From positions 1-27,710 of the forward strand of contig JBAXYC010000001.1 of assembly GCA_037127615.1 (NCBI GenBank): a DNA stretch of 27,710 nt, given 5' to 3'. The stretch comes from a bacterium. GTDB taxonomy: Bacteria > Patescibacteriota > Minisyncoccia > Phycocordibacterales > PALSA-1337. The notes below the pieces were generated by a model. That model was not told the origin of the DNA. It was given only the letters and a program-made list of their open reading frames with translations, and did not search any database. A program made the translations under genes and the position numbers. The first letter of the stretch is position 1. Each line of letters begins with the position of its first letter. This document shows, piece after piece, positions 1 to 25,772 of this stretch.

Positions 1-179
1 CAATAGCTCAGTCTCGCGACCATGATGCTCGCCCAGAAAAAAAGAGTATTTTCAATTCCCTACCTACTCAAAATGAACCTGCACCTGCGAAAGAAATAAA
101 AGAAGAAAAGAAAATAGATACTGATGACGATGACTGGGGTGCTATTCCTGCCTTTCTCCGACGCTCAAAAATTAAGTAA
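1..179 (+). CDS. ftsZ: Cell division protein FtsZ, C-terminal tail (partial; 5' end outside window)
   Basis: The frame starting at nt 3 is open and ends ...DTDDDDWGAIPAFLRRSKIK* (TAA 177-179). An acidic linker followed by IPAFLR is the conserved FtsZ C-terminal peptide. Confidence 0.85.
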   Translation, partial: IAQSRDHDARPEKKSIFNSLPTQNEPAPAKEIKEEKKIDTDDDDWGAIPAFLRRSKIK

Positions 180-197
180 ATCTGTTACAATAAATAA

Positions 198-1139
198 ATG
201 ATGTACGATCTCGCAATCATCGGCGGCGGACCTGCAGGAGTAGCTGCGGGTGTGTACGCGTCTCGCAAGCGTCTCAAAACCGTTCTTATTACAAAAGATT
301 TCGGTGGCCAGAGTATCGACTCGCTCGGTATTGAAAACTGGATTGGTACGGTAAATATCCCTGGCGCACAGCTTGCCAAAGATCTCGAAATGCACCTTCG
401 GGCGTATGCTACTGATGCGAAAACTGGCAAGGTCATCGTCGATATAAAAACCGGCGAGCTTTGTCAGCTCATCACAAAAACTGCTGCAGGATTTTCTATA
501 ACAACAAATAAAGGCTCATACGAAGCACGCACCGTCCTCATGACAGCTGGTAGTCACCGCCGCAAGCTCGCTATTCCTGGGGCAGACACATTCGAACACA
601 AAGGCCTTACGTACTGCGCGTCATGTGACGGCCCTCTTTTTACAGGACAGGATGTCGTAGTGGTCGGAGGTGGTAATGCCGGCTTCGAAAGTGCAGCTCA
701 ACTCCTCGCGTACTGCAAGACAGTCACCCTACTGAACCGTAGCGCAAACCTCCGCGCTGATCCGAGCACGATCGCATCAGTCACGGCAGCACCAAACATG
801 AAAGTCGTGCTCAATGCTGTGCCAAAAGAAATAAAGGGTGATAAATTTGTAAATGCGATTGTCTACACTGTTGACGGAAAAGATATGGAGCTCCCTGTAG
901 CTGGTATTTTTGTTGAGATCGGTGCATTACCTACTACCGAGTTTGCTAAAGGCCTCGTCACTCTCGATGACTATGATCGCGTCATTGTCGATCCTCGCAC
1001 ACAGCGTACATCTGTCGACGGTATATGGGCAGCCGGTGACTGCACTGACGGACTTTATCACCAGAACAACATCGCTGCTGGCGACTCCGTAAAGGCGCTT
1101 GAGGATATCTATATTTGGATAAAGAAAAACACGAAATAA
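198..1139 (+). CDS. trxB: Thioredoxin-disulfide reductase
   Basis: FAD motif GGGPAG, redox CASC (YCASCDGPLF), NADPH motif GGGNAG and C-terminal GIWAAGD. Confidence 0.92.
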   Translation: MMYDLAIIGGGPAGVAAGVYASRKRLKTVLITKDFGGQSIDSLGIENWIGTVNIPGAQLAKDLEMHLRAYATDAKTGKVIVDIKTGELCQLITKTAAGFSITTNKGSYEARTVLMTAGSHRRKLAIPGADTFEHKGLTYCASCDGPLFTGQDVVVVGGGNAGFESAAQLLAYCKTVTLLNRSANLRADPSTIASVTAAPNMKVVLNAVPKEIKGDKFVNAIVYTVDGKDMELPVAGIFVEIGALPTTEFAKGLVTLDDYDRVIVDPRTQRTSVDGIWAAGDCTDGLYHQNNIAAGDSVKALEDIYIWIKKNTK

Positions 1140-15737: not shown

Positions 15738-17267
15738 CTAGCGAAAATGATTCAGCGTATAGTCAACAAGCAGCCCAGCGTCCTTTTTTTCATCCGGTGA
15801 CTTGAGTACGATGGTCACAATCGGTCGCTTTGTCTGACCGACTGGAAATTCAAATACAGAAAGATTTGACTCCCCTGCTTCAGTTGTCTTACCGTTCTTT
15901 CCACCAAAAAAATATTCATCGCTAACAAAGTCATTAAAATTAGCCAAATTTGTAAAGCCGCTTGCGCCATATGCGCTGTCTTTTATTTTTCCGGATGTGA
16001 TATTAAACACAAAACTACGATTATTATAAATATATTTTGCGAGCATAAAAAGATCCTCAGCAGTCGACACATTTTCCACCGCAGCACCTGAAGGGTCTAC
16101 AAAATGACTATGCGTCATACCGATCGACGCGGCCTTATCATTCATTTTTTTTATAAAATCATCGCGACCATAGTACCGAGCTATGGTTTCTGCGGCTTCA
16201 TTTGATGACTCCATCATGAGGGGAAATAGCAGCTGGTATATCGTATAGCGCTGCCCCACCTGAAGCCGCGCTTTCGATGTGTATACAATAGCCTCTTTTG
16301 ACACCGTTGCGGTCGAGTCGAGATTGATATACTCGGTTGCAACCAACGCTGTGATCAATTTTGTAATTGACGCAATCGGTACAACCTCAGTTGAATTCTT
16401 ATTGATAAAAACATGATCATTCTGAAGATCAGCTGACAGGTATATCGGCGCGGATATCGCCACAGCATTATCTGCATAAGTAAAACTATCTGGCGCAAAA
16501 CTTTGTTCGAAGACGAGCACAGGGGTTCCCGCATCTACGGCATCGTACACTTTTTTTGCATCATCCGTATCCAGACGAATACAGCCACCAGTATATTCCT
16601 TTGATGTGAGTGAACCGTCTGGATAATATGTACGACCATGAATAAAAAAGTTTCCCTGAAAATTCATACTCCACGGCATCCAGACGTGTCCCATTCCTGA
16701 GAAATGCGCTTTTTCCTTGCTACTTATTTTATACAAACCAGCCGGCGTCTCCCACCATGAGCCGGGGCGGCCTTTTGTGACGATCGGCACTTCGAGGAAA
16801 AGTGCACCTGCTTTATACACTTGGATCTTCATGGCCGATAAATTTGCTTCAAGAAAATCTGCTTTGCTGTCAATAAACTGCTGCTTTGTTTTGCCAAAAA
16901 AATCCGGGTTTGAGAGTGCGGGCTGTTCACCATACGAAAACTGCGCTTGCTGAATCGGAAGATTGACTGGCAAACTGATCGTGTAGCTAAGCGTTTTATT
17001 TCCGTACAGATATGAATAGCCGCCGATGCCAAGGATCGCAACAATAAGAATAATAATCGCCGTGACTGCCGGCACTTCCGAGTGCATCGCTTTCCATAAT
17101 GAAAAATGCCGCGACTTTCCAGCGCTGGCTTGCGAGCTATAGTAAAAAGCTTCCTTAATGTCATCGGCTGTCCACCCATCCATAACAAGCTCATTTTCAA
17201 TGGCGGCTTTTTCCATGCCTGCCTGCAGTCGCGCGGTCACGTGATTGACGAGCTGTTTGTGATACAT
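15738..17267 (-). CDS. Membrane-anchored L,D-transpeptidase (YkuD) fused to a D-Ala-D-Ala carboxypeptidase (peptidase S11)
   Basis: TM helix; YkuD motif FFIHG...TGGCIRL; S11 motifs SITK, SSN and KNG (variant of KTG). Start placed at ATG 17267. Confidence 0.85.
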   Translation of the reverse strand: MYHKQLVNHVTARLQAGMEKAAIENELVMDGWTADDIKEAFYYSSQASAGKSRHFSLWKAMHSEVPAVTAIIILIVAILGIGGYSYLYGNKTLSYTISLPVNLPIQQAQFSYGEQPALSNPDFFGKTKQQFIDSKADFLEANLSAMKIQVYKAGALFLEVPIVTKGRPGSWWETPAGLYKISSKEKAHFSGMGHVWMPWSMNFQGNFFIHGRTYYPDGSLTSKEYTGGCIRLDTDDAKKVYDAVDAGTPVLVFEQSFAPDSFTYADNAVAISAPIYLSADLQNDHVFINKNSTEVVPIASITKLITALVATEYINLDSTATVSKEAIVYTSKARLQVGQRYTIYQLLFPLMMESSNEAAETIARYYGRDDFIKKMNDKAASIGMTHSHFVDPSGAAVENVSTAEDLFMLAKYIYNNRSFVFNITSGKIKDSAYGASGFTNLANFNDFVSDEYFFGGKNGKTTEAGESNLSVFEFPVGQTKRPIVTIVLKSPDEKKDAGLLVDYTLNHFR

Positions 17268-17332
17268 AAGTATGATAATCATAGCACGACGCTGCTGGCA
17301 CAGGTTTTAACACGGTGGATAGTTAAATAAAA

Positions 17333-17386: not shown

Positions 17387-17785
17387 TTATCGCATCGTGG
17401 CGGGAAATTCCCTCACGCGGAGCAACTTCTTGAAGAGTGCCACTGCGACCTTATTTTCAAACGGTTTCCGAAGAAACGCGTCGACGCCGAGGTTGCCGAG
17501 GACTTCTTCCTCGGTGACCATGTCCAACCCGGACATGACCACTGTTTTTGTGAACGATGATCTCTTCTTCGCAAAGAGTGCGAGGGCAAGGCCATCATTC
17601 ACTGCCACTAGATTCAACTCGGTGACGACAAGGTGAAACCATCCGTTTTCAAAAGCGGCTTGAGCAGTGACAGCACTGTCGCAAATCGTGATGTCACAAT
17701 TTGAATCGACACCTTCGTGCAGGAGCTCTTGAAGCAGGATTGCAGTGGTAGCCGCCTTTGCAACAAGCATAATGTTTTTTCTCAT
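17387..17785 (-). CDS. Stand-alone response-regulator receiver domain, degenerate
   Basis: CheY-like pattern FHLVVTELNL...VVMSG...AFLRKPF. Start placed at ATG 17785. Confidence 0.75.
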   Translation of the reverse strand: MRKNIMLVAKAATTAILLQELLHEGVDSNCDITICDSAVTAQAAFENGWFHLVVTELNLVAVNDGLALALFAKKRSSFTKTVVMSGLDMVTEEEVLGNLGVDAFLRKPFENKVAVALFKKLLRVREFPATMR

Positions 17786-17942
17786 AATTTTATTCAATTT
17801 TCAAGTTTCAGTCGGTTATCTGTATAGATGGAGCTGGGCGGAATGCCGTGTATCCATCTGGGTGTATATTAGCACAAAAAATAGCTCTTGTAAAGGGCTG
17901 GGGAAACGCCCTTGTAGAGCCCTACAATAGGCCTCGTAGCCG

Positions 17943-17971
17943 TTGCAAAATAGCCAAAATCGGTATATTCT
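17943..17971 (+). promoter_or_regulatory. Probable sigma70 promoter for the repeat array and tRNA-Val
   Basis: TTGCAA, 17-nt spacer, TATTCT. Confidence 0.5.
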
Positions 17972-17986
17972 AAATAAACAAAATAT

Positions 17987-18101
17987 GCGCGGTTAGGTGT
18001 TTTGGTAGTTAAGTCAAAGTCATTTGCGCGGTTAGGTGTTTTGGTAGTTAAATCGAGTTATATGCGCGGTTAGGTGTTTTGGTAGTTAAATCAAGTTATA
18101 T
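17987..18101 (+). repeat. Three tandem 38-39 nt units that mimic the tRNA-Val 5' end
   Basis: GCGCGGTTAG+GTGTTTTGGTAGTTAA+12-13 nt, starting at 17987, 18026 and 18064. The tRNA itself starts with GCGCGGTTAG at 18102. Confidence 0.95.
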
Positions 18102-18173
18102 GCGCGGTTAGCTCAGTTGGTAGAGCATCCCCTTGACGTGGGGAGGGTCAGAGGTTCGAATCCTCTATCGCGC
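18102..18173 (+). tRNA. tRNA-Val (GAC)
   Basis: Acceptor GCGCGGT/ATCGCGC, D-arm GCTC-AGTTGGTA-GAGC, anticodon loop TT-GAC-GT and T-arm AGAGG/CCTCT. The anticodon stem is imperfect. Confidence 0.88.
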
Positions 18174-18227
18174 ACAACAAAAAAAAGGTATTATTATGGT
18201 ATAAAAATAACCAATAATACAACTATA

Positions 18228-21200
18228 ATGAACAACAAAATAATCACGCGAGGACTTGCAGCAACTTCCCTCTTTTTATTTTTATTCATCTATAGTTTTG
18301 CTTTGCCGCAGCAGGCTCACGCGCAAATCCCCTGTTACACATACACGCCTTCCACTGCAGCTACTGTTTCTGTCAGCCTTCTGACGAGCAGCGGCGCATC
18401 ACAGACAATAACAATTCCAAATCAAAACCCACCTTCCGTCCTACAAACCATATCATTTGATGCACCAAACTATCTGTGCGCAATGTTTTACAACCTCCAG
18501 TATCCGCAACTTCTTTTTGCAAACTTTTTAACGTCGGCAGGAGTAATACCATTTAAAGGATCGCCTTTTGCCCTCAATCTCCCGTATTCATATACGGATG
18601 GTATTGGCTACAACTATGGCTGGTTTGAATACATGGATTACGAGGGTCTCCCTGATATGGGCTACTCCGCCGCTACTGAAAATGCTGTTATCGATATGAT
18701 TGATAAGTCTCACCAGTTTTCAATCAATGCCGGAAACGGTTTAGGAACAGGAAACGGCTATGGAACATCAGTAGGTTTTTCTGGAAATGATATTGCGATA
18801 TATCCAGCCTACGGGCCCCTCACCATGACTGCCCCTGCCACAAACTGTGTCGCTCTCAGCGGTACCGGCCCTCGAAAAATTGTTTTCTTGCGTGGCGCAT
18901 CATCGGGCATGAGCGTCAGCGACTTTGTTGCACAAGCAAACAAAGTTATCACGAGTGGATTTAAAACGATTGAACCACTCAAATCAAATTTCGATCAGTT
19001 CTCATTTTATCTTGATCTAAAAAACTATACCGAAACAAGTTACCCTGAAGTGGTAACGTCGACAGGTGGCGTTTTCTTTACACAAGCCGCGACACAATCA
19101 CTGATGAATCAAAACAGCTGTTCCGGAGCCACCGGCGTTGCAGACCAGTATTTCTTTTACGCGGGTGCGACCTCTGGGTTTGAGCGTGGCATGAGTATCA
19201 ACAAGGGCCATTTCTCTGGTTTCAACATATCTCAATCTACTGACCCACTCGTTGCAATCCATGAAATGGGACACGCATATGCAGGCCTACAAGATGAGTA
19301 TGCTATTCCCGGCTCAACATACGCTCCAAGCGGCGCACTCGCTCCAGCAGAAAACTGTTCAACAAAACCATCAAAGGATTTTCGTGATCGTCCAAATAAC
19401 AAATGGTATGGGGCGCCAAAAATACAGGGTTGTGGGTACCTCGGATCTGGACCACTGCCGCTTATCGATAGCACATATTATCGACCAAGTAATTCAAGTC
19501 TAATGAACTTGGTTGGTTCATATGGAAATGACAATCACTTCAATGTTATCAGCTGTGGATACATGCTCGCTGCGATCAAGCACCAGGATATCAGTACTCC
19601 GGCTATCGCTGAGACAAATGCCCTTAGCAACTGGCCAACATGTCTCAGTATGGCGTCTGCAGGAACTGTGGTCGCTGATGGTATTCCCGCTTCCGCTTCA
19701 ACTCCTGTCGCCTCAAACTTTACCCCTGCAGGAAATGGTGGAACCATAACGGGATCAGGATTCACCACCACTGGAAATGAGATCATGCTTACTCCGGTAA
19801 CCGGCACCGCACAGGCTCCAGTCACTACTCAATCTGCAAATGTGTTTTCAATATTTGATGTATTTAAAAATTTATTTAATAAAATCATCCCTGAAGCACA
19901 TGGCCAGACTACCACTACGTCATACCAGATCGATGACGTACCAAGCATCGATGGCACATCTCTCAACTTTACCGTGCCCACAAGTACTCCAGATGGTACA
20001 TACAAGATATCTGTCGCTGCATTAAATAGTCCATGGACAGCAACTTCATACACTATCGTTGTCAGTGGAAATGGTGCTGGGAATCCTGGTACAGGCACAG
20101 GTACTGGCACGGGCACCGGTACTGGCACTGGTGGCACAACGACAGGCGCAGCCTATCCCGCTTCAAAACCAGCAGCCGCAGTCTACTCGTGTACAAGCGG
20201 CTACACTCTCCAATCAAACAATACATGCTTCAAACCCGCTGTTACTACAAATACACCCGCAAGCAGCTATGGTGCATCACTCGGCTGTCAGTCTGGATAT
20301 TCATACAACGCTTCAATGAATGTCTGTCAGGGAACATACAATGGTCTTCCGATAAATGCCGCGGCTCAATACACATGTCCTTCTGGTGGCACATTGTCAG
20401 GTTCAACATGTAATGTACCTGCGTCATCTGTCACTACAGCAGCAAGTACCGTCACTGCTACCGCAAAGTATTCGTGCTCAACCGGCTACACACTAGCGAC
20501 TGCGACTTGTACCATAAATGGTCCAACAAACCTCACTGCCAATTCAAGTAAAAATGGTCAGGTTACTCTCACGTGGAGCAATAACAGTGTGCCAAATGGA
20601 TACAATACATGCGTCGAGCGTGCACTTGGTACAACGGGAGCCTTTAGTTGTATGACTGCGCTTATGCCCCCTACTGGATCAACAATCCTGCCAACAACAT
20701 ATGTTGATGCTGGCCTCCCTCCATATACCAAATATCAATATCGCGTACGTATGGCACTCATGTCGACACTCGGCACACTCGCTGGCTCATATTCAAGTCC
20801 ATATTCAAATACGGTAACTGCTACAACAGCCCAGACCCCAACAGCTCCGACCGTAACAGCGACTGCACAGTCAACATCTGGCATCAATCTCACCTGGACA
20901 ACTACTGAAAATAACATCTCTGGATACGGTGTATACCTTATTTCAGGGACAGTAAAAACATTTATTGCGACAACTACTGTAAAAAATTATGCGGTTTCAG
21001 GACTTTCAGCTGGAACACAATATTGTTACGGTGTTATTTCCTCAGTTAATCCATTAAATAATTCCGCGATGAGTAAAAGCGCGTGTGCCACAACGGTCGC
21101 TACACCCGTTGCCACATCAACACCTCCTGTTACGCCACCAGCAACAACTACTCCACCAGTGGTTACTCCACCTCCCGCTACGACGACTCCTCCGGTCACA

Positions 21201-21968
21201 ACTCCACCGACTGCGACTACCATCCCAGCCACCATCACCTACACATGTATATCAGGTCAGACGCTCAATGCTTCGAATCGTTGCGCGCGCACAGGATCAT
21301 CCTTCACCACTGCACCAACAGCACACTATTCGTGTCCAACAAACTACACGCTCAATACCGCCACACGAACATGTACAAAAAATGTGACTGCTACGGTGAC
21401 GACAACAGTATTCCCTGCAGTTACCGCGCCGACACCGACTGCAACAGAGGTGGCCACACCTACTGTAACGGCGACAACTACACAGGTAACTCCGCCGATA
21501 CTCACAACACCATCACCTACACCTACCACCACATCCGTTCCTGCAACAGTAGCTTACACATGTTCGGCTGACTACACACTCACTGGCACTACATGTAGCA
21601 AAACAACCCAAAACACTACCGGTACAGCAGCAAGCCTGACGACCACGTGTCCAAGTGGTTCAACGCTTCGCACCTCAGCATCTGGCGCGACCTCATGTGT
21701 TTCCACGGCGTCACACTCAATCACCCCCCCAACAAACACCTACTCTTGCCCAGCTGGCGCTACACTAAACACAACAACTCACACGTGTTACGGCTCGACC
21801 ACAACGTCTATCCCTGCGACAGCAACATATACATGTCCATCAGGCTACACGCTCGACACAATAACAAACAGCTGTACTGCCCCGATCTCGATGAGGACAT
21901 CGACATCTACTACGACCGCGAGCGTGTGGGACTCTATCACTGATTGGTTTAGTAATCTATTCAAATAG
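18228..21968 (+). CDS. Large secreted/surface protein: M64-like zinc metallopeptidase, Ig/IPT-like and FN3 domains, Cys-rich and Thr/Pro-rich repeats
   Basis: Start at ATG 18228 (the ORF-track extension runs through tRNA-Val). Signal peptide ...AHAQ; HEMGHAYAGLQDEY; GT repeats; Y[ST]CPSGYTL-x-C repeats; FN3-like W...Y.YRV segments. Confidence 0.8.
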   Translation: MNNKIITRGLAATSLFLFLFIYSFALPQQAHAQIPCYTYTPSTAATVSVSLLTSSGASQTITIPNQNPPSVLQTISFDAPNYLCAMFYNLQYPQLLFANFLTSAGVIPFKGSPFALNLPYSYTDGIGYNYGWFEYMDYEGLPDMGYSAATENAVIDMIDKSHQFSINAGNGLGTGNGYGTSVGFSGNDIAIYPAYGPLTMTAPATNCVALSGTGPRKIVFLRGASSGMSVSDFVAQANKVITSGFKTIEPLKSNFDQFSFYLDLKNYTETSYPEVVTSTGGVFFTQAATQSLMNQNSCSGATGVADQYFFYAGATSGFERGMSINKGHFSGFNISQSTDPLVAIHEMGHAYAGLQDEYAIPGSTYAPSGALAPAENCSTKPSKDFRDRPNNKWYGAPKIQGCGYLGSGPLPLIDSTYYRPSNSSLMNLVGSYGNDNHFNVISCGYMLAAIKHQDISTPAIAETNALSNWPTCLSMASAGTVVADGIPASASTPVASNFTPAGNGGTITGSGFTTTGNEIMLTPVTGTAQAPVTTQSANVFSIFDVFKNLFNKIIPEAHGQTTTTSYQIDDVPSIDGTSLNFTVPTSTPDGTYKISVAALNSPWTATSYTIVVSGNGAGNPGTGTGTGTGTGTGTGGTTTGAAYPASKPAAAVYSCTSGYTLQSNNTCFKPAVTTNTPASSYGASLGCQSGYSYNASMNVCQGTYNGLPINAAAQYTCPSGGTLSGSTCNVPASSVTTAASTVTATAKYSCSTGYTLATATCTINGPTNLTANSSKNGQVTLTWSNNSVPNGYNTCVERALGTTGAFSCMTALMPPTGSTILPTTYVDAGLPPYTKYQYRVRMALMSTLGTLAGSYSSPYSNTVTATTAQTPTAPTVTATAQSTSGINLTWTTTENNISGYGVYLISGTVKTFIATTTVKNYAVSGLSAGTQYCYGVISSVNPLNNSAMSKSACATTVATPVATSTPPVTPPATTTPPVVTPPPATTTPPVTTPPTATTIPATITYTCISGQTLNASNRCARTGSSFTTAPTAHYSCPTNYTLNTATRTCTKNVTATVTTTVFPAVTAPTPTATEVATPTVTATTTQVTPPILTTPSPTPTTTSVPATVAYTCSADYTLTGTTCSKTTQNTTGTAASLTTTCPSGSTLRTSASGATSCVSTASHSITPPTNTYSCPAGATLNTTTHTCYGSTTTSIPATATYTCPSGYTLDTITNSCTAPISMRTSTSTTTASVWDSITDWFSNLFK

Positions 21969-22013
21969 GATCTCGCCAGTTTTCTTTTATCGTAATGCGT
22001 GTATGATAACGTA

Positions 22014-23276
22014 GTGATTACTCTTGCTATAGAAACAAGTTGCGACGAAACGGCCGTATGCCTCCTCGAAAGCACTAGGGCACCAGAAAATCCATCTCAC
22101 GAGGGCGCATATTCTCTTTTGCACTATGCGATACGTGGAAATAGTGTTCTCTCACAGATCGAGTTTCACCGACAATACGGCGGCGTATTTCCCGCAATGG
22201 CAAAACGTGAGCACTCAAAAAATCTTGTGCCCCTTCTCGAAGAGATGATCAAAAATTCTGGTGTATCGATGCTCGCGTATACAGCACAAGACCCTGTGCA
22301 GCAGCTTGATTTTTTAAAAGAAAAAGAGCCAGAGCTTCTCGAGAATTTACTAAAATCAACACTCCTCCACGAGAAACCTATCATTAACAAAATAGCCGTC
22401 ACACGAGGTCCAGGACTAGAACCAGCGCTATGGGTAGGAGTCAACTGTGCGCAGGCACTTGGAAAAATCTGGGATATACCGGTTGTTGGCGTCAACCATA
22501 TGGAGGGACACATCGTGGGATCTTTACTCGCCTCAAGCGAAGTCGCACCCTTTCAACCCCTTCGTCCTATTGCCTTTCCAGCACTCGCTCTTCTTATCTC
22601 CGGAGGACACACTGAACTTGTTCTTGTAAAAAAAATCGGCGACTATAGCGTTATCGGCCGCACAAAAGATGATGCCGTTGGAGAGGCATTCGACAAAGTC
22701 GCTCGTATGCTCGATCTCCCCTACCCAGGAGGTATCGAGATCAGTAGCCTTGCTGCACAAACTCGCGCGACCGAAATTAACAAGAAAAATAACCCCGATA
22801 AAATCAAAATCACCTTGCCTCGACCGATGATCAATTCACACGATCTTGATTTTTCATTTTCAGGAATAAAAACTGCGGTGTTGTACACACTACAAGGAGA
22901 TAAAAGTGGAAAAACAAATACAATGGAAACCATAGACGAGCAGACACGTGGTGAAATCGCTCGCGAGTTTGAGGATGCCGTGACTGATGTGCTCATCGCA
23001 AAGACCAAACGTGCACTCGATCAATATATCGACGAATCTACACCCATCGCTAGCCTTATCATCGGTGGCGGCGTCAGCGCAAACGCTCATATACGTATGT
23101 CTTTTAAAAAACTCGTAGCAGAGTATTCGATCCCGCTCTACCTTCCACCCGCTGGTGTATCTGGGGATAACGCTCTCATGATCGCTCTCGCTGGTGCGCT
23201 TTGTGACGATGCAACAAACACTGATGCCTCTGCTACACCTACTATCCTTCGTGCTCACGGCAACCTCTCTTTATAG
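22014..23276 (+). CDS. tsaD: tRNA N6-threonylcarbamoyltransferase TsaD
   Basis: LAIETSCDETA, GPGLEPAL, NHMEGH, LLISGGHT, DDAVGEAFDK, GGGVSAN and DNALMI. GTG 22014 is the preferred start. Confidence 0.96.
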   Translation: MITLAIETSCDETAVCLLESTRAPENPSHEGAYSLLHYAIRGNSVLSQIEFHRQYGGVFPAMAKREHSKNLVPLLEEMIKNSGVSMLAYTAQDPVQQLDFLKEKEPELLENLLKSTLLHEKPIINKIAVTRGPGLEPALWVGVNCAQALGKIWDIPVVGVNHMEGHIVGSLLASSEVAPFQPLRPIAFPALALLISGGHTELVLVKKIGDYSVIGRTKDDAVGEAFDKVARMLDLPYPGGIEISSLAAQTRATEINKKNNPDKIKITLPRPMINSHDLDFSFSGIKTAVLYTLQGDKSGKTNTMETIDEQTRGEIAREFEDAVTDVLIAKTKRALDQYIDESTPIASLIIGGGVSANAHIRMSFKKLVAEYSIPLYLPPAGVSGDNALMIALAGALCDDATNTDASATPTILRAHGNLSL

Positions 23277-24551: not shown

Positions 24552-24627
24552 TGGTGCCAAGAACCAGATTCGAACTGGTGACCCTTCCCTCTTCAGGGGA
24601 ATGCTCTACCAACTGAGCTATCTTGGC
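24552..24627 (-). tRNA. tRNA-Phe (GAA)
   Basis: 76-nt cloverleaf with acceptor GCCAAGA/TCTTGGC, anticodon arm TTCCC-CTGAAGA-GGGAA and encoded CCA. Confidence 0.95.
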
Positions 24628-24704
24628 GAAGACTCTGATTTAACTACCAAAACACCTATCTTGGCGAATACTTTAACTTAACTACCAAAACACCTATCTT
24701 TAGC
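24628..24704 (-). repeat. Two tandem ~38 nt units that mimic the tRNA-Phe 5' end
   Basis: Minus strand reads GCTAAAGATAG+GTGTTTTGGTAGTTAA+GTTAAAGTATTC, then GCCAAGATAG+GTGTTTTGGTAGTTAA+ATCAGAGTCTTC, then the tRNA (GCCAAGATAG...). Confidence 0.95.
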
Positions 24705-25062: not shown

Positions 25063-25137
25063 TGGTGCCACCAGCAGGAATCGAACCTGCATCTAGAGCT
25101 TAGGAGTCCCTTGTTCTATCCATTGAACTATGGCGGC
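25063..25137 (-). tRNA. tRNA-Arg (CCT)
   Basis: Acceptor GCCGCCA/TGGTGGC, anticodon loop CT-CCT-AA, T-arm GCAGG/CCTGC and encoded CCA. A31-G39 is mismatched. Confidence 0.88.
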
Positions 25138-25772
25138 GTTGATTCCAACTTAATATAATCAATCATACTAATCACTGACTTGAAATACGCTGCAGCTCTT
25201 ACTATTCGTACTCGACACATTCCATATATTAGCCTCTTATTATCACCTCCCTTCAGAATTTCATAACCAACCAGCTGTTTTTGGTCAATATTCAGAAAAT
25301 TTGTCCAAAAAAATATAGTTTTTTGAATATCCATTCCTGCAAATATCCGTAGACCAAGCCTTATTTCACTTTTCGGTACCCCCAATGTATACAGCCCCTT
25401 AAGAAAAGATCTAATAAGATAAGGGTCTCCGTTGATTAAGTTAAATTCCCCTTTTGACCCTTCGCCCCAATAGATAGCAGCGAGAACAAGTAGTCTATCT
25501 CGATCAGAAATCTCACCTAACGTACTAGCGACCCGCTCCTTTGCTTCAAGCCATTTTTTTCTTGCCCGCTCTTTGCTGCCTCCTTGTTTTACCCTCAGGG
25601 CATCTCGAAACTTTGGTAACACCTCAACTTCTTTAATATATTTAAACACTGTTCCTGATGCACGTCCAGTGATTTTTTTGATTTCAGGCAAAGAATGCCC
25701 AGTCTTCCTTAAACTGACTATTCGCCTTATTTCTGTTTTGGTAAGAGATTTCTTTGATGGAGTAAAAAGTAT
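25128..25772 (-). CDS. HTH plus degenerate LAGLIDADG-like protein overlapping the tRNA-Arg 5' end
   Basis: AAIYWGEGSK helix, NGDPYLIRSFL and YGMCRVRI. The frame stays open upstream of TTG 25691 through an HTH (EIRRIVSLRKTGHSLPEIKKITGRASGTVFKY) to ATA 25772. The start codon is uncertain. Confidence 0.65.
   Translation of the reverse strand: MLFTPSKKSLTKTEIRRIVSLRKTGHSLPEIKKITGRASGTVFKYIKEVEVLPKFRDALRVKQGGSKERARKKWLEAKERVASTLGEISDRDRLLVLAAIYWGEGSKGEFNLINGDPYLIRSFLKGLYTLGVPKSEIRLGLRIFAGMDIQKTIFFWTNFLNIDQKQLVGYEILKGGDNKRLIYGMCRVRIVRAAAYFKSVISMIDYIKLESTPP

Follow-up and report, generated by a model that had tools for sequence, protein, structure and literature searches.

The closest published kind of sequence to the array described here is the tRNA-linked repeat (TLR) of Escherichia coli, which lies downstream of a tRNA or rRNA and ends in the last 18-19 nt of that preceding RNA (PMC8144298). 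TLRs in tRNA operons are without known function (PMC8144298), an example being the 178-bp repeats of tyrT (Egan and Landy 1978, as reviewed in PMC8144298). Our units resemble TLRs in that both are non-coding and sit in a tRNA or rRNA transcription unit beside the gene, where co-transcription and processing are plausible; in that both form small tandem sets, with 1-5 copies per locus for TLRs and 3, 2, 2 and 3 at the four tRNAs of this genome; and in that every repeat reproduces exactly a short stretch from the end of the mature RNA beside it. They differ in that TLRs copy the 3' end, whereas our units copy nt 1-10 or 1-12 of the downstream tRNA and lie upstream of the gene; that the units add a conserved, stemless D-loop and are confined to one D-arm class; and that they have a non-tRNA part common to several loci and belong to an order of the CPR, not to the enterobacteria. 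The units mirror TLRs (5' end, upstream) but lack their defining features.

Partial tRNA genes can also remain from integrating genetic elements (PMC9897764). Such att-type fragments are like our units in being incomplete tRNA genes that repeat part of a complete gene in the same orientation, but they flank kilobase-sized elements with integrases and usually hold the 3' part of the gene, whereas our units are tandem, hold the 5' part, have ~28 nt between the repeats here (13-60 nt in relatives) and are accompanied by no mobile genes. The units thus lack what defines this kind as well. CRISPR arrays share with the units a regular period and an alternation of constant and variable parts, and in both the newest units may join at one end. 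Here, however, the variable part consists of 12 nt and the beginning of the local tRNA, the tails of 12-13 nt are related to one another and are not unique spacers, and the last “repeat” is the tRNA gene itself; no cas genes or domains were found among the array neighbours scanned in the window (the whole stretch of 27,710 nt analysed here). The initial annotation of this DNA knew of no named element of this kind, and our search of the literature on tRNA-linked repeats, CPR tRNA leaders and partial tRNA genes agrees, as it returned no description of 5' leader mimics.

In the window, three units lie head to tail and directly adjoin tRNA-Val(GAC), the last one ending at tRNA position -1 (17987-18101). 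All three are composed of GCGCGGTTAG, then GTGTTTTGGTAGTTAA, then a tail of 12-13 nt. The features of the locus are:

17943 to 17971, forward strand: promoter-like site TTGCAA-N17-TATTCT, weight matrix score 7.8, the best in 17850-18110 and a weak match
17987 to 18025, forward strand: Val unit 1, 39 nt, tRNA-Val nt 1-10 followed by GTGTTTTGGTAGTTAA and GTCAAAGTCATTT
18026 to 18063, forward strand: Val unit 2, 38 nt, with the tail ATCGAGTTATAT
18064 to 18101, forward strand: Val unit 3, 38 nt, with the tail ATCAAGTTATAT, ending at tRNA position -1
18102 to 18175, forward strand: tRNA-Val(GAC), intact and without an encoded CCA (ARAGORN; Rfam RF00005, 67.5 bits)

The annotation's description of three 38-39 nt units (39, 38 and 38 nt), each made of the local tRNA nt 1-10 and a common part of ~28 nt within the leader, with tails that vary from unit to unit, is borne out by the sequence and by TRF, which gives a period of 38, 3.4 copies, 92% matches and a score of 221. 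It was also right to place TTGGTAG at tRNA positions 16-22 and to regard the D-stem as lost, the partners at positions 13, 24 and 25 being replaced. Two doubts that it raised can be laid to rest. The first was an assembly artefact, which the Val array is not, because independent lake metagenome contigs reproduce it gaplessly: one (X2 record 4, from a lake-water run) spans 17876-18082 with zero differences, and one from another lake-water run (X3 record 11) is gapless across 17889-18167. No polymorphism in unit number was seen at the array in these contigs, which are weak evidence for copy number. The second was a core scattered over the genome with no association to tRNAs. The 16-nt core has five exact occurrences in the window, against 0.29 expected even with three mismatches permitted, and by genome-wide search its copies in the 747-kb assembly lie exclusively in tRNA-linked arrays.

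There are four such arrays in the genome, with three units at Val, two at Phe, two at Thr and three at Ile, each carrying the 5' end of its own tRNA. The second one in the window starts ~15 nt past the stop of a 90-aa ORF:

24666 to 24704, reverse strand: distal tRNA-Phe unit, with a decayed acceptor copy GCTAAAGATAG, the identical core and the tail GTTAAAGTATTC
24628 to 24665, reverse strand: proximal tRNA-Phe unit, GCCAAGATAG followed by the identical core and ATCAGAGTCTTC
24552 to 24627, reverse strand: tRNA-Phe(GAA), intact (ARAGORN)

Two units stand ahead of tRNA-Thr(GGT) on contig 63, and three 38-nt units stand upstream of tRNA-Ile(UAU) on contig 13 (7843-7917, reverse strand), a tRNA whose anticodon is rare in bacteria. 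In the Ile array, the longer D-loop TTGGYTAG is found in unit and tRNA alike, without a change in the period of 38. The distal Phe unit and Ile units 2 and 3 hold acceptor copies that no longer match their own tRNAs. The Thr-UGU, Thr-CGU, Lys, Val-UAC and Ala tRNAs of the genome have the same D-arm and are without units. On contig 125, a copy of tRNA-Ser nt 1-22 (one mismatch), divergent thereafter, lies 111 nt upstream of tRNA-Ser(GCU) (150-242, reverse strand) and is a 5' leader copy of another D-arm class.

The anatomy of the units was drawn from 212 units at 146 tRNAs, collected via the core; sets chosen independently of it (all tRNAs of the genome and of a near-complete relative, 30 tRNA-Phe loci and 48 tRNA-Val-GAC loci) have the same core. 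A unit is the local tRNA nt 1-10 or 1-12, a stemless family D-loop (GTYTTGGTAG, usually with RTA) and a spacer that ends like a pre-tRNA leader (ATAT, followed by the G of the next start). By position, nt 1-7 track the local tRNA and nt 8-12 are TAGCT; nt 13-15 are GTT or GTC instead of CAG, more rarely GAC, AAC or TAC, with position 13 never C and position 15 always a pyrimidine; nt 16-22 are TTGGTAG, position 16 being T even if the unit's own tRNA has C16; and nt 23-25 are mostly R-T-A instead of A-G-C, with a variable remainder. The bases replaced at 13-15 have all changed by transversion (CAG to GTY, or else to GAC or AAC), and none of more than 200 units retains CAG there. The bases before units favour A-4, T-3, A-2 and T-1, unit periods cluster at 35-44 and 64-81 nt, and the spacing from unit to tRNA runs from 35 to >100 nt. 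Units at Met and Ile-UAU, tRNAs with longer D-loops, follow their own loop length yet retain GTT, and in relatives the initiator tRNA-Met has leader units of 104-106 nt (L124 and L165) in which the entire D-arm is kept.

The core is the best preserved part of the unit. Across two complete tRNA sets, ~10/288 core positions differ, as against ~18/168 acceptor positions, and units with three or four acceptor mismatches still have a perfect core. Between close species (L032 and L044), none of 21 core positions differs, compared with ~7/40 (~17%) in the spacer, core and tail being unchanged, and between genera the spacers cannot be aligned. Half-decayed cores were hardly seen in the core-independent locus sets. 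This pattern of conservation points to constraint on, or homogenisation of, nt 8-22.

No conserved fold was found within units (-0.165 kcal/nt, about the same as the -0.144 with a shuffled spacer), consistent pairing of the kind made by terminal inverted repeats or a foldable palindrome is absent, and no covariance model of Rfam 15 matched at E<=1 besides tRNA. The replaced part is unstructured and U-rich, its GG being retained. In cloverleaf scoring (ARAGORN and Rfam RF00005), the true tRNA alone scores and the units do not. Several other candidates were tried and rejected: a conserved hairpin, as TTGGT-ACCAA pairing occurs in a few loci and is not general; a derivation of 72-nt units from decayed whole tRNA genes, there being no similarity past nt 26 (mean z -0.19); complementarity between core and RNase P RNA, which does not exceed that of shuffled sequence; and pairing of leader with trailer, of which there is none. 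At one relative's locus (L215, genome G096), 67 nt ahead of tRNA-Phe, the place of GTTTTGG is taken by a GC palindrome, TCCGCCAGCTGGCGGA, with TAGGTAGGTAACA after it.

The annotation had proposed a search for the core in this genome and its relatives, and this yielded, beside the four arrays here, many tRNA-linked loci across the order. The core, TAGCTGTYTTGGTAG, is present in 88 of 164 genomes of the family and in 47 of 151 genomes sampled from the order (Taylor-/Nomurabacteria-type Paceibacteria); the search pattern was TAGCTGTTTTGGTAG with at most one mismatch, and the reversed pattern, used as a control, was rarely matched. Outside the order the core is almost absent, with three single exact matches in the ~284 rest-of-phylum genomes of a 301-genome phylum sample. 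Nearly all matches lie 35-150 nt ahead of a tRNA of one D-arm class. In species-representative genomes, the pattern of core, 18-48 nt and TAGCTCAG occurs at more than 100 loci, nearly all of them labelled Nomura-, Taylor- or Zambryskiibacteria, Paceibacterota or Parcubacteria, and one same-genus contig is a public “Candidatus Taylorbacteria” record. Matches in MAGs labelled “Prevotellaceae” and “Proteobacteria” were rejected as chance matches. A “Nanoarchaeia” match was also set aside: its architecture is real, but its tRNA content resembles what stands ahead of tRNA-Lys(CTT) in relatives, so the contig is probably mis-binned.

The carrier tRNAs are Val, Phe, Thr, Lys, Ile, Met, Ala and Asn, with single units assigned to Asp and Arg, and the main carriers have the D-arm TAGCTCAGYTGGTAGAGC in common. 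Within this class, presence is patchy and all or none. A near-complete relative has units at eight of ~12 eligible tRNAs; among loci picked by the tRNA alone, units occur at ~10 of 30 tRNA-Phe loci of one genus and at 6 of 48 tRNA-Val-GAC loci of the family; and the set of carriers changes from genome to genome. In the same genus, neither of the two genomes with a tRNA-Val-GAC match (G001 and G003) has units there, and their regions upstream of this tRNA have no homology to the window. Five MAG contigs (G073:C2, G104:C70, G125:C47, G167:C2 and G107:C115) start or stop exactly at the 5' end of tRNA-Val-GAC, which suggests that unresolved leader arrays break the assemblies of several relatives at this gene.

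Where do the units stand with respect to transcription? When sites are ranked with a simple sigma70 weight matrix, the top promoter-like match precedes the most distal unit in 53 of 61 loci and falls within the array in the other 8. The end of the -10 lies 8-31 nt from nt 1 of the distal unit, the same geometry as at unit-free tRNAs, where the best site is found 5-25 nt before +1. The site at 17943-17971 has the geometry of its relatives, and a start from it would fall ~8-12 nt before unit 1. The “probable promoter” of the annotation is therefore present as a site, though with a weak match to consensus, and it is absent from a stricter promoter scan; the rRNA promoters of relatives are canonical (TTGACT-17-TAGAAT). 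The arrays are, most likely, 5' leader of the pre-tRNA, a placement read from sequence. Being located between promoter and tRNA, the units should be part of the leader that RNase P removes, and since the genome encodes both RNase P RNA (contig 2, 13237-13627) and rnpA, removal of the leader at +1 is expected; the units would then be transcribed and discarded. The single RNA run with part of the window covers 17522-17848, and the array lies outside that interval. A boxA-type antitermination site was considered and rejected, as the rRNA leaders of relatives carry TGTTT(A/T)TTGAAAA, which is unlike the core.

The units also bear traces of how they arose. Over 10 nt, the bases before a distal unit resemble the bases before the next start (0.435, against 0.343+-0.012 when permuted), and for 64-82-nt units this similarity is 0.55; the duplicated segment therefore extends into the leader, as tandem duplication predicts. 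Tail similarity (nt 23-32) is higher when different tRNAs within one genome are compared (0.44) than when the same tRNA is compared across genomes (0.35), with a baseline of 0.34 (permutation p~0.001), and 30 pairs of spacers from tRNAs for different amino acids are homologous at a score of at least 14, where 2 are expected; in one such pair, Lys-TTT and Val-TAC, 23 of 29 positions are identical. With a non-tRNA part common to different tRNAs, the units form one family of common descent, which moves from one tRNA gene to another or is homogenised among them, its first 10-12 nt being local.

The same holds within our genome, and it bears on the annotation's suggestion of iterated target-site duplications from an insert of ~28 nt. 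In favour of that suggestion, a 28-nt part is common to the Val, Phe and Thr arrays; the G11 of the Val and Phe units does not come from the local tRNA; and the distal Val and distal Phe units are mutual closest relatives, the similarity of Val unit 1 to Phe unit 1 (0.93) exceeding its similarity to the other two Val units. A common internal sequence between locus-specific flanking duplications, one trait expected of an insertion sequence or MITE, is seen for Val, Phe and Thr and in some other genomes. Against it, the “insert” varies from 13 to ~60 nt among relatives, leader bases are co-duplicated, and inverted ends, a transposase and a viral counterpart are all lacking, so that tandem duplication with copying between loci fits at least as well as cut-and-paste.

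Here, we propose that the Val array is one locus of an order-wide, self-propagating, non-coding family of “pseudo-5'-end” repeats housed in the discarded leader of tRNAs, a reading on which we are evenly divided between belief and doubt. A segment of the leader with the first ~22-28 nt of the gene would duplicate beside the gene, and repetition of this event would build arrays. The family-specific part would then be copied or homogenised between tRNA genes via the TAGCT and TTGGTAG blocks, by gene conversion or by microhomology-guided template switching. Units could be lost cleanly through recombination between the direct repeats of nt 1-12, which would explain the all-or-none pattern. They would be tolerated in the meantime, as transcription would start upstream of the most distal unit and RNase P would cut the leader at the true +1; a unit could not form a rival tRNA core, because it is without the D-stem and the 8-14 and 15-48 tertiary pairs. 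The units would thus be self-propagating passengers in pre-tRNA sequence that is thrown away, and would do nothing for the host. Both the mechanism of copying and this absence of function are what we infer from the arrangement of the units.

Several observations sit badly with passenger repeats. Positions 8-22 are kept far better than acceptor copies and spacers, even in old copies, which looks like purifying selection. As no unit among more than 200 keeps CAG, a recent duplicate of the tRNA itself is nowhere seen, and the units at Ile-UAU and Met, having their own loop length yet GTT, need either conversion or convergent selection. We know of no enzyme or mechanism for copying such units between loci. 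Their retention across the order, despite easy loss, calls for some benefit or continual regain. The leader copies at initiator tRNAs, in which the D-arm is kept, show that disabling the D-arm is no general rule.

A broader and tentative alternative, which we think possible but rather unlikely, leaves the choice between two kinds of system: the units are either a protein-less, homology-guided insertion element or a lineage-specific leader motif read by a factor that binds D-loops, and in either case a new system associated with tRNA genes. As an insertion element, they would be specialised on bases 1-12 of tRNA genes and would copy themselves from one gene to another through template switches in TAGCT and TTGGTAG, with new units added beside the gene and the arrays recording successive waves.

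The second of these, taken by itself, is the main rival to the passenger reading, though also unlikely in our judgement. The core (UAGCUGUYUUGGUAG with RUA) would be a functional cis-acting motif of the leader, a single-stranded D-loop look-alike bound by a trans-acting factor, which could be an enzyme of tRNA processing or modification, the holoenzyme of RNase P or some other RNA-binding protein; it would tune the maturation or stability of single-copy tRNA genes, with unit number as the dose. Retention across the order, with the core kept while the flanks decay, is among the best arguments for such a motif. A further strong argument is the replacement at 13-15, which is not random and involves transversions alone; position 16 stays T even in units whose tRNA has C16; the motif is found in tRNA leaders only; and genome-specific tail variants are common to different tRNAs, as if co-evolving with a binding partner. 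However, no partner was found, nor any complementarity to RNase P RNA or to the trailer. The motif must be dispensable, since it is patchy within the genus and absent in both same-genus genomes with tRNA-Val-GAC, and neither its spacing to the tRNA (35 to >100 nt) nor the identity of its carriers from genome to genome is constant.

Another proposal of the annotation, that the units are decoy 5' acceptor strands, we regard as improbable; here nt 1-7 of a unit would pair with the 3' strand of the tRNA and so control its folding or the RNase P cleavage site. It is feasible in silico, as the MFE fold of the precursor in the window pairs unit 1 with the 3' strand. In addition, 101 of 169 distinct units (60%) have an acceptor copy that shows no difference from the tRNA and tracks it between genomes (for Phe, GCCAAGA, GCCGAGA, GCCGAGG and GCCAAGG), and changes of the pair-keeping kind, C>T (38), are in slight excess over pair-breaking G>A (20). 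But the acceptor is not the conserved part: the remaining 68 of 169 copies (40%) have decayed, mostly by C>T and G>A, with nt 8-22 intact; the pairing with nt 66-72 is disrupted by 77 of 126 changes in the acceptor; a perfect core persists where three or four acceptor positions are mismatched; and the distal Phe unit of the window and Ile units 2 and 3 have lost the match to their own tRNAs. The pattern of conservation thus argues against an acceptor decoy as the selected feature.

Less probable still, and in our view very doubtful, is that the units are scars of mobile elements of the integrase or homing-endonuclease type, which inserted at tRNA genes and brought a replacement 5' end, leaving att-like repeats. 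The core does resemble the D-arm as an attP core resembles attB, and such elements typically show direct repeats of a tRNA end on both sides of foreign sequence (PMC9897764). Nevertheless, merely 13-60 nt separate the repeats, no locus was seen with unit and tRNA kilobases apart, and core plus tail is absent from viral contigs, bar two chance matches inside coding sequence. Nor is there an integrase or nuclease near either array of the window, where the neighbours are housekeeping genes. One reading frame in the window had been a candidate for such an element:

25128 to 25772, reverse strand: ORF of ~210 aa whose stop is the TAG at nt 8-10 of tRNA-Arg(CCU); an ATG start is not evident

As a LAGLIDADG homing endonuclease this ORF was rejected, as it has no Pfam, PHROG or PDB match and no recognisable nuclease domain. 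Its homologues, at least 175 of them at ~207-225 aa, make up a family in the CPR; a few have an N-terminal HTH hit in Pfam, and several of the loci have glutaredoxin upstream and HSP20 downstream. In all four loci with DNA, tRNA-Arg lies directly 3' of the homologue, and the position of the stop codon varies in or before the tRNA. Given the lack of a nuclease match, the recurring neighbours, the fixed adjacency to tRNA-Arg and the varying stop, the ORF is a conserved syntenic gene, not a demonstrable endonuclease, and no mobile element at “the same junction”.

That every unit has its own promoter, boosting transcription of the tRNA, is scarcely credible: AT-rich, TATAT-like ends do precede each unit and the 72-75-nt units could hold a promoter, but 38-nt units are too short for a -35/-10 pair, the Phe and Thr tails are without a -10, the best site falls inside the array in just 8 of the 61 loci, and nothing like the canonical TTGACT-17-TAGAAT is conserved in the units. 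A search for -35 and -10 hexamers at 16-18 nt spacing likewise did not find them in each unit.

The leaders of tRNAs are usually regarded as short and featureless. In this order of the CPR they hold a conserved, tRNA-derived and unfoldable module in a third to half of genomes, at single-copy essential tRNA genes. If the module is selfish, then the part of the transcript discarded by RNase P is a niche for non-coding repeats, and sequence can move between tRNA genes with no transposase; if it is functional, it adds a further layer of control over tRNA maturation in minimal-genome organisms with reduced RNase P. In practice, the arrays can mislead the annotation of tRNAs and may break MAG assemblies at tRNA genes, and they provide a lineage marker for the order.

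A 1246-aa protein with an fn3 domain (18228-21968, forward strand) starts ~55 nt past tRNA-Val and is followed by tsaD (21999-23276); in two same-genus relatives, from which the fn3 gene is missing, the sequence past tRNA-Val looks TsaD-like by eye. On the other side of the array, at 15738-17282 on the reverse strand, a single 514-aa protein combines a YkuD L,D-transpeptidase domain with a Peptidase_S11 D,D-carboxypeptidase domain (Pfam).
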